Shown here: one piece after another, positions 49,041 through 52,329 of the stretch | How positions within the stretch are numbered: the first letter of the stretch is position 1 | Layout: every line of letters begins with the position of its first letter | DNA from: Girardia tigrina | Lineage: Eukaryota | Reading direction: 5' to 3' | Length of the DNA: 64,000 nucleotides | NCBI GenBank assembly: GCA_001938485.1 | Contig: MQRK01198362.1 | Span: forward strand, 62,001 to 126,000 | The notes under the pieces: model-generated | What the model saw: only the letters and a program-made list of their open reading frames with translations | Told to the model about the DNA's origin: nothing | Database searches by the model: none | Position numbers and translations under genes: made by a program

Positions 49041-49863
49041 TTTTTCTGGCCACTCATGTACTAAACTTCCATCTTAATATGAGAGTTTGAAAGTAAAGAT
49101 AAATAACATTTTGATCGAAATGCAAAGGACATTTCCTTCGTATCCAGGCCAGATCTAATAGCGCATATAATTAACTCTTCCATTGACAGGAAACGAAATT
49201 CGGTCTCTACTTTTAATAGCAGTCGCATGAACAATCATGATGACGATAAAGATAAGTTAAGAATATTAGAAATGGTTTGTATTCATTACAATAACATGAT
49301 ACAAGTTAGTAAATATGGTTAATATCTGGGTGTCACGTTACAGAAAAATGTAAAAATATTATTATACACGTGGTTCGGTAAGTTATCATACTAATCATAT
49401 TAAATAGTAACTGAATTTTTTAAGAGTCTTGAGAAAATAACTTCATAAAAAGCATGAACAACGTCAAGAGTGATCTGGTGAGTCCTGAATAACGCTATCA
49501 GTTTTACTGTGCTCTGATTCTTGATATTCTTCGCTTTTCGGAAAACTTTCCAACATGTTTATTTCAGCGGTTTTAGAACTCGAATGACTAGTATCAGAAT
49601 TGGGTGATCCCTGATGATATTGAACCTGAAAATTGTGCCCCATTAGAATATATTCATCAGATCAATTTTTATGAAAATTAAGTATTTAAAATGTTAGATT
49701 CTAAGGCTTAAAATTATAAAAGGTCACAGCTACAATTAATTCCGAAGATGAGAATAGTCGAGAATATTATCTCAAGTTCTGTGGCCATTCTAGAACGATT
49801 TGTAGCGCACTTATACCAAACACAAAAAGATACATAAAAAACTCATTAAGCCAGTCAGCTTAA

Positions 49864-50704
49864 CCCTTTCAACAGTGTTTGGACACATTTCTCCGAGAAT
49901 TTCTAATAATTACTAAAATAATTTTAATGCTACAAATGCATTGGGATCTGGGATTTTTATACTGTAGGAGGTTATGGGCTCGTAAACAAGTCCCAATCTA
50001 TCTGCGTTGTTGCTGTTTGCTGTCTGCAAATCCACATTTTACTTTATCTATACAATTTTATCAGTCTAGAATCTAGAAGTTACACGTCGAAACAGTAGAT
50101 ACGAGTCACGCTTATTACGAACTGTGTTTTTATAAGCGCTCGGAATTGCCAAGTAAGCTATTTATAATTTTATTTTACTTATTTAATGTGCTATATTTTG
50201 GGCTATAATATTACATGTATTAACAACATCACAATTTGAATGCAAACATTTATTTACAACACAAACAGATTCTTCACAACAATTTTCATTGGTCATCTTG
50301 CTTTGATTGATATAGTTTTTGATTAATTTATTTAAATCTAAAAAACAACGAATGGGAAAGATTAATTATAAATTTTAATTTCTCATAATTTTTATTGGAT
50401 AAAAGTCATTACATAATTTTTAAATAAACATTAATTTTTAAAATATATTACATTTAATAAGTTAAAATCATTTACTGAAAATATTATTAAAATTCATAAT
50501 TATCAAACTTTAATTAATTAGTACTTAAAATTAATATCATTAAATTAATTTCATTAGACTCAAATAATTAATCAATAAACATATCAATCCCATCTGAGTA
50601 GGAGAGTCACAAATCTAAACAGCATACAAACAACAAACTTACAACATTCCAAATTATCCCTCACAACATGGATTACTGAAATAAAAAAAATAGTGTTGAA
50701 AGGG
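49864..50704. mobile_element. Non-autonomous piggyBac-type element containing cassette copy 3
   Basis: TTAA|CCCTTTCAACAGTGTTT ... AAATAGTGTTGAAAGGG|TTAA (TIR 15/17 identical, TTAA TSD); internal box 50589-50612 and micro-ORF 50296-50183 (-). Confidence 0.85.
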
Positions 50705-52329
50705 TTAAATGAAGTTAATTTTTCTCTTAAAGCAATCAGTTTAAGATTTCAGAAAGATGTCAGTATACAAATATAGAGTTAAATACACAAAGAAATAAGA
50801 TATAAATATTTGAATAATTAACACATTGACACCGGCTGAGTCCGTTATACATTCGGATGGCGCCAGCGTCAATGCTTTAAAATTTACAATTCAATTCACA
50901 TCCGATAATTATGCACGTTAGATCAATTAATCGCGTTCAGTTTTTGTTAATCATAATATTAGTTGGCGAATGCAAGATTCATATATTTATTTTAAATTTT
51001 GATATACCACACATGACAAATATTCTGAAAGGGGTTTCAACCGATATAAAGCCCGTGGTGAATGTCAATTGGAGCAAATCTTAATAAATAGGAATATGGG
51101 ATCATTCTGACATTGGCCGTGAATTGTCTAAGAGACCCATTCAATATTTGCCTTTTGATATTCAAATAATAAAACGCTATTTATTATAGAAAATATTTCT
51201 TTATTCATAAAATGAGCCATCTAAACATGGTTTGTAACGCACATAACCTGGGCGGGATATTTAAGTTCACATTTTAATAAATTTGATCATATTAAAAACA
51301 AACAAAAATATGGTACCATTTACCCTAATAATCTGAGGAAGATAATAGTTGTTCGACCTGTCGGATCAAATACCACTAACGTACGACTAACGTAAATTAT
51401 TTTTGGACCCAATACTTTGTTACATAAAATATTCATATCACATCTATAATCCGACACTGACGCTATGAAGAGGTTGTTATTATTTAAATTTTAAATATTT
51501 TGAATGATACTAATAATTAATCTTTTATTAATTATGAAATAATTTGAATAATTACTATCGAAATTATCGGAATTGAAATATGTCACTTGTGAATGAAGAT
51601 AATTATGTTTAGTCAGCAAATGTTACCGTTCTCATCACAACACAAATAATTAATAAAATAAATAAATGATTAACCGGCAATTTTAGTAATTATCATTAAT
51701 TCGTTATATTTGAAAATAATTTAGCGGTTGATCATAAATAAAGCGTCTTCGAAGTGAAGAATGTTTAGTTGAAAATAGATAATTTAATTTTAAATCAATA
51801 AAGTCGTGAAGTTAAAAATTAAAAGTAATAAATTTTGCACATAAAAATCGATGTGACAACCTACAAGTGACAGTGACAATCCACAGTGTCAATATGAACA
51901 CAGATGGCATTTGTTAGAGTCATCCAATCAAAATTGAGAGTCAAGCGTGACAGAAGTCACTCAACAGTTACACGTCTTGACAAATGACTGAGAGACAGTG
52001 ACAAATAACAAGTCAACATTTACTGATCAATAAATGATAAATCTCGTTCAACGGTAAATTATTTTCTTAAATATTCGCACTGAACTCACAATTCTCTTAA
52101 AGTCTTGTGGCTCCTAATTTCGGGGTGCTCGAAGAATTTCTTCAAACATCGATATTTGAAAGATAATTCAATTGATGAAACAAGTATAACTACATACATA
52201 GCATTGTTCCACAAATTCCTGTTTTTAATGTGATCTTTGTTCTTGCTATTTTGTCTTCTGTTGGCAAAGTGTAAATAAGTCATTTGAAAGAGATTTCTAA
52301 CAAACTTAATTTGTTTTAATTTAGGTAGA

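Follow-up and report, generated by a model that had tools for sequence, protein, structure and literature searches.

Does this locus represent a piggyBac-type transposon that has captured a cassette and now moves it as cargo, or a MITE into which an unrelated element has inserted? In the window, i.e. the whole 64-kb, AT-rich stretch of DNA analysed here, an earlier note had recognized an 841-bp TTAA-flanked unit and read it as a Pack-type piggyBac element mobilizing a 'micro-ORF cassette', with insertion of the cassette into a very small MITE as the other option. Its description of the structure proved accurate. The unit occupies 49864-50704, between TTAA target-site duplications (TSDs) at 49860-49863 and 50705-50708. 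Its TIRs are perfect over 11 bp (50694-50704 at the right end), and 15 of the first 17 positions agree between the two ends (left TIR, 49864-49880). The longest stop-to-stop frames overlapping it are of 56-70 codons, in keeping with the reported lack of a transposase. The cassette indeed makes up most of the interior (448 of 841 bp, 53%), and the TGTGAGG motif noted near the right TIR is its minus-strand start at 50665, 39 bp in from the right end. We are nearly certain that the locus is a 448-bp Ty3/gypsy solo LTR with an ACATG TSD within a 388-bp piggyBac-type MITE, a likely nested insertion rather than a capture.

Other features of the window include exon-like frames on the plus (21379-22182, 25814-26419 and 32658-33239) and minus (16719-17102) strands, which resemble a HEATR5-like protein with HEAT repeats and one of longin/VAMP7 type. 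Frames judged by eye to be decayed pogo/Tigger-, mariner-, Tc1- and Penelope-like remnants lie at 4234-4842, 12745-13152, 45879-46466, 56112-56645, 59850-60449 and 31146-31485, and further inverted-repeat, MITE-like elements at 40594-40986, at 40666-40914 against 58862-59039, and at 47159-48260.

The cassette and its retrotransposon lineage

When the whole unit was searched against the genome, all 39 non-self matches among the best 40 of 2,481 candidates spanned only about positions 342-822 of the query, which correspond to the cassette. These matches are 95-97% identical to it and lie at unrelated sites with duplications of their own. The boundaries common to them place the cassette at 50218-50665 on the minus strand, with ACATG on each side (50213-50217 and 50666-50670). 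This exact direct repeat, which is present as a single copy in empty relatives, is the TSD that the earlier note had asked to be looked for around the cassette, and falls within the 4-6 bp expected around a single LTR. The ends of the element are TG..TA instead of the canonical TG..CA; this does not exclude it from the solo LTRs, because TGTA is a listed non-canonical type. Among 29 fetched loci with this LTR (two of which, L005 and L015, represent one site), an exact 5-bp TSD was found in 17 and a TSD with one mismatch in two, while a PBS-like motif starting with TGG directly follows the 5' LTR in three and a polypurine tract precedes the LTR in two. Of the remainder, one abuts a gap, three lack any such feature and one was missed by the script; by eye, a duplication is visible in the latter (L023), and the PBS-like motif, with one change, in L024. 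We assume that this motif corresponds to tRNA-Arg; a literature search pairing it with 'gypsy' returned no match.

Extension of six LTR loci led to a near-complete element (L063), with the order LTR, PBS-like motif, gag-region frames, reverse transcriptase (RT), RNase H, integrase, polypurine tract and LTR. The LTR type of the window forms both direct repeats of this pol-bearing element; the two are 93% alike, and the outer duplication is ATCTA. Its domains follow the gypsy-type order, namely PF00078 (weak), PF17919/PF17917, PF17921 and PF00665, and CCHC knuckles are present in the sister copies L062 and L064. For the RT-RNase H region of another copy (L066), Ty3 is the closest among solved structures (E 2e-32), and the named protein relatives are entries labelled 'Pol polyprotein from transposon 17.6/297/412', at about 45% identity. 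Going by these sequence affinities, the cassette is a Ty3/gypsy solo LTR, given the near-complete parent, its gypsy-type domains and the matches to Ty3 and 17.6/297/412. BEL/Pao was considered as the source of the LTR and ruled out by the Pfam and PDB matches.

The lineage is very abundant: its degenerate start motif marks at least 25,620 LTR starts genome-wide, a count restricted to starts whose position -15 is A or T, against 12 for a reversed control. Its TG..TA ends would escape LTR finders that accept TG..CA only. Searches of titles and abstract openings for a gag start within an LTR, for TG-TA ends and for flatworm elements, with subscription papers and repeat databases outside their scope, returned nothing that describes this family. 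The window itself holds three more LTRs of this lineage: one at 2564-3009 (minus strand) with an ACGGC duplication and TG..CA ends, and two, at about 10107-10565 (minus) and 59125-59626 (plus), without matching duplications. BLASTN at E<=1e-3 did not detect these three, but a sensitive local alignment did, with scores of 73-80 against shuffled maxima of 41-49. What had been taken for other copies of one cassette in the window are thus separate, distantly related LTR families.

The micro-ORF, too, finds its explanation in the retrotransposon. It runs for 37 codons on the minus strand (50183-50296), from an ATG at 50296 through 26 codons up to the end of the LTR and a further 11 in MITE DNA. In three loci that retain the internal region (L007, L011 and L029), the same frame continues via the PBS-like motif into gag-region sequence. 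On this evidence of frame continuity, we identify the micro-ORF as the N-terminal part of a gag frame that begins inside the LTR, with translation presumably starting at the ATG there. Because the gag frame begins inside the LTR, each solo LTR leaves behind an ATG-started frame that runs on into the neighboring DNA, and no function is expected of the one at the window locus. The gag frame is open for at least 30 codons in all seven diverged LTRs, five of which have an ATG 31-32 codons before the LTR end; in the three other LTRs of the window it is open for 33 (2564-3009), 42 (59125-59626) and 30 codons (about 10107-10565). These seven are the informative part of a fuller tally in which 30 of 30 rows are open for at least 20 codons, a weak count in that it is drawn mostly from one family, includes two false ends (L012, at 415 bp, and L115) and has one control frame that always ends in a stop. 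The supposed cargo is hence the gag start carried within an LTR, and the 'micro-ORF cassettes' of the window are LTRs that all belong to a single, highly abundant gypsy lineage.

The host MITE and its empty relatives

Without the LTR, the unit is a 388-bp piggyBac-type MITE. Its left part (49864-50212, plus strand), comprising the left TIR and the parent transposon's 5' non-coding region, matches 39 non-self places at 82-86% identity among the best 40 of 128 candidates. The right 34 bp (50671-50704, plus strand), which include the right TIR, have matches of 85-93% that come after the left part in these relatives. The assignment to piggyBac made in the earlier note is supported. The rule given for this superfamily, a TTAA TSD with short TIRs starting with CCYT (PMC10175614), describes both the TTAA, which flanks many of the relatives too, and the short TIRs of the unit, which begin with CCYT.

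Longer variants of the MITE retain the start of an acidic frame. One of them (L153) shares the left end and continues into a decayed frame that gives weak evidence of a piggyBac transposase, with two hits to non-overlapping parts of the PF13843 profile (E 0.0011 and 0.00021), both under the curated cut-off of 22.4 bits; seven of its eight stop-free pieces gave no Pfam hit. A DNA search with this decayed transposase region, in which all 16 candidates were scored, recovered only the one L153 site in three contigs along with short hits, and no intact autonomous partner. At L061:7417-8286, close to a gypsy copy, there is a fragment of an unrelated piggyBac-type transposase (PF13843, E 9e-33); tblastn with the PF13843-positive ORF of L061 gave no hit against L153. 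As further observations on the family, head-to-head or double-ended derivatives (L088/L089, L078, L039-L041, L046 and L057-L059) carry a pair of oppositely oriented right ends separated by about 140-160 bp, and in two contigs (L156 and L157) an element that appears by eye to be Tc1-like splits the acidic frame at the same TA.

The relatives also reveal the site in its unoccupied state, with a single exact ACATG in L033 and a single copy with one change in L032. None of 29 fetched MITE loci has an LTR at the junction; one of them (L038) has an LTR about 650 bp outside. Genome-wide, the empty junction together with the right end occurs at 467 places, a count that includes assembly duplicates and double-ended variants, against 0 for the control. 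Together with the ACATG TSD, these empty relatives favor the option that the cassette inserted into a very small MITE.

Capture, targeting or chance

Genome-wide pattern searches for the filled junction found the composite of the window once. The first returned five places, i.e. the window, a locus L068 and one unrelated site in three contigs; the second returned nine: the window and L068 again, four places with three mismatches, and a single site represented by three contigs (L078-L080). The one three-mismatch place inspected of the four (L074) has no LTR of this lineage. The filled junction is exact at two places, one of which bears a different LTR. That locus, L068 (G000:C177804, about 15107-15570), has a 422-bp LTR with ACATG on each side, at the same base and in the same orientation as in the window and beside the same right end. 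Its LTR is 72% identical to that of the window and 89% identical to an unrelated solo copy (L123), and its MITE is differently built. A further LTR of the lineage is situated about 350 bp from it. Segmental duplication joining the window and L068 was rejected, because similarity is absent outside the element.

The proposal that a MITE captured or received the cassette, which has since moved as cargo, can draw on the intactness of both TIRs and of the TTAA, by virtue of which the unit could in principle be mobilized in trans, and on the presence of an LTR beside the same right end at L068. However, the L068 LTR belongs to a different family and its left side is another MITE structure, and the composite of the window is without a second copy; with no second composite found, it is unlikely that the transposon carries the LTR as cargo. 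The earlier note had named a solitary composite amid common empty MITE copies as the outcome that would count against capture, and one composite against 467 empty junctions is that outcome. Moreover, the supposed cargo is a transposon with its own TSD rather than host DNA, and the MITE family seems to predate the LTR, with no intact partner found in the DNA search. By the published definition, a Pack-TIR is a stretch of non-TE sequence flanked by TIR elements, and Pack-TIRs in multiple copies have transposed again (PMC8277862). Here, in place of captured non-TE DNA, the insert is an LTR, and in place of several re-transposed copies with different flanks there is one copy. We accordingly reject capture followed by mobilization as exceedingly improbable.

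That an LTR should have entered at the same base twice raises a different alternative, namely that the insertion is nested but non-random, with the gypsy lineage attracted to the subterminal part of the right end in the piggyBac family, e.g. by a bound protein, beyond any sequence preference. Two LTR families share base and orientation (the window and L068), and a third, with a 410-bp LTR and mismatched flanks, lies within about 15 bp of the window's insertion site at L078-L080, in a double-ended MITE in which about 12 bp beside the insertion site are replaced, consistent with a small deletion after the insertion. Around the exact TIR word, which is carried by three of 23 distinct ends, three LTR starts fall within 0-60 bp, two of them at the same-base offset, against none in the opposite orientation. 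Under a uniform model, i.e. without any preference, only about 0.006 further hits would be expected among the 467 sites. On the other side, the site holds two of at least 25,620 LTR starts while 467 sites stand empty, and the pattern was noticed after the fact, from a single additional case. A strict 5-mer specificity for ACATG was rejected, as CATGT is barely enriched, being the duplicated 5-mer in only 43 of 25,620 starts against about 23 expected from composition. The integrase of the lineage has a weak target profile of A/T flanks around a purine..pyrimidine 5-mer. Derived from 52 independent flanks with the sites at issue left out, and assuming symmetry and independent positions, this profile ranks the insertion site, in the observed orientation, 7th of 768 positions in L033 and 13th of 772 in L032, and lifts the expectation to 0.06 (bootstrap 0.013-0.27).

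Sequence preference together with chance can explain the same-base recurrence, because, by this profile, the site scores among the best 1-2% of positions in the MITE. True targeting of the site is unlikely: we consider it very improbable that insertions of the TG..TA gypsy lineage are repeatedly directed to a single base a short way inside the right end of this piggyBac family, and exceedingly improbable that a factor such as a bound protein draws it to the subterminal region beyond sequence preference. Retrotransposons that target a DNA transposon do exist in the form of the Tx1 LINEs; targeting here would likewise direct a retrotransposon into a DNA transposon, in this instance with an integrase, and would, if true, provide a rare example of a DNA transposon as the target of an LTR integrase. 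Literature searches on target-specific LTR insertion into DNA transposons, covering titles and abstract openings with subscription papers outside their scope, returned nothing describing this family.

For the preferred reading, nested insertion, we posit the following history. An internally deleted piggyBac derivative would have inserted at a TTAA by means of a partner's transposase; later, a gypsy element would have entered at a point 34 bp from its right end, with duplication of ACATG; and recombination between the two LTRs of that element would then have removed the internal region, leaving one LTR. The proposed order follows from an age contrast, with the LTR 97% identical to its best relative against at most 86% for the MITE part (each among the best 40 candidates), such that the LTR looks younger than the MITE family. 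As the LTR looks younger, mobilization after its insertion is unlikely, and the composite has likely not moved since. A full composite could have been missed in the DNA searches, in which the best 40 candidates were scored, although the junction counts cover the whole genome; and copies may be collapsed or missing, since the 1.43-Gb assembly is gapped and broken into 255,254 contigs. Both solo LTRs and nested insertions are commonplace, and the finding as it stands matters little.

Comparison with known systems

Both the LTR and the MITE belong to familiar element types. The MITE resembles other piggyBac MITEs in its TTAA TSD, its CCYT TIRs and its place in a series of internal deletions derived from a decayed transposase copy; it differs as part of an old, diverged family (82-88%) with head-to-head and double-ended variants, for which no intact transposase was found. 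Like Pack-TIRs and Pack-MULEs, the unit has TIR ends that enclose extra DNA; unlike Pack-TIRs, it encloses the LTR of a retrotransposon, complete with a separate TSD, and occurs in one copy. The word 'piggy' is absent from the main text of the article on Pack-TIRs (PMC8277862).

The retrotransposon agrees with Ty3/gypsy elements (Metaviridae) in the 5-bp TSD, the PBS-like motif after the 5' LTR, the polypurine tract before the 3' LTR, the CCHC knuckle, the RT-RNase H-integrase order and Ty3 as the best PDB match. It departs from them in its TG..TA rather than TG..CA ends, in a gag frame that has an ATG within the LTR, 26-32 codons from its end, and in that the last A of the LTR and the TG of the PBS-like motif form another in-frame ATG; its named relatives are only about 45% identical. 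The LTR_retriever preprint lists seven non-canonical types, among them TG..TA ends combined with a 5-bp TSD, and finds non-TGCA LTR elements to be rare in plants, with 870 against 83,368 canonical ones, and mostly Copia (bioRxiv 10.1101/137141). The present lineage shares the TG..TA ends and 5-bp TSD of the TGTA type described there; unlike those plant, mostly Copia cases, however, it belongs to gypsy, occurs in an animal-like genome and numbers at least 25,620 LTR starts.
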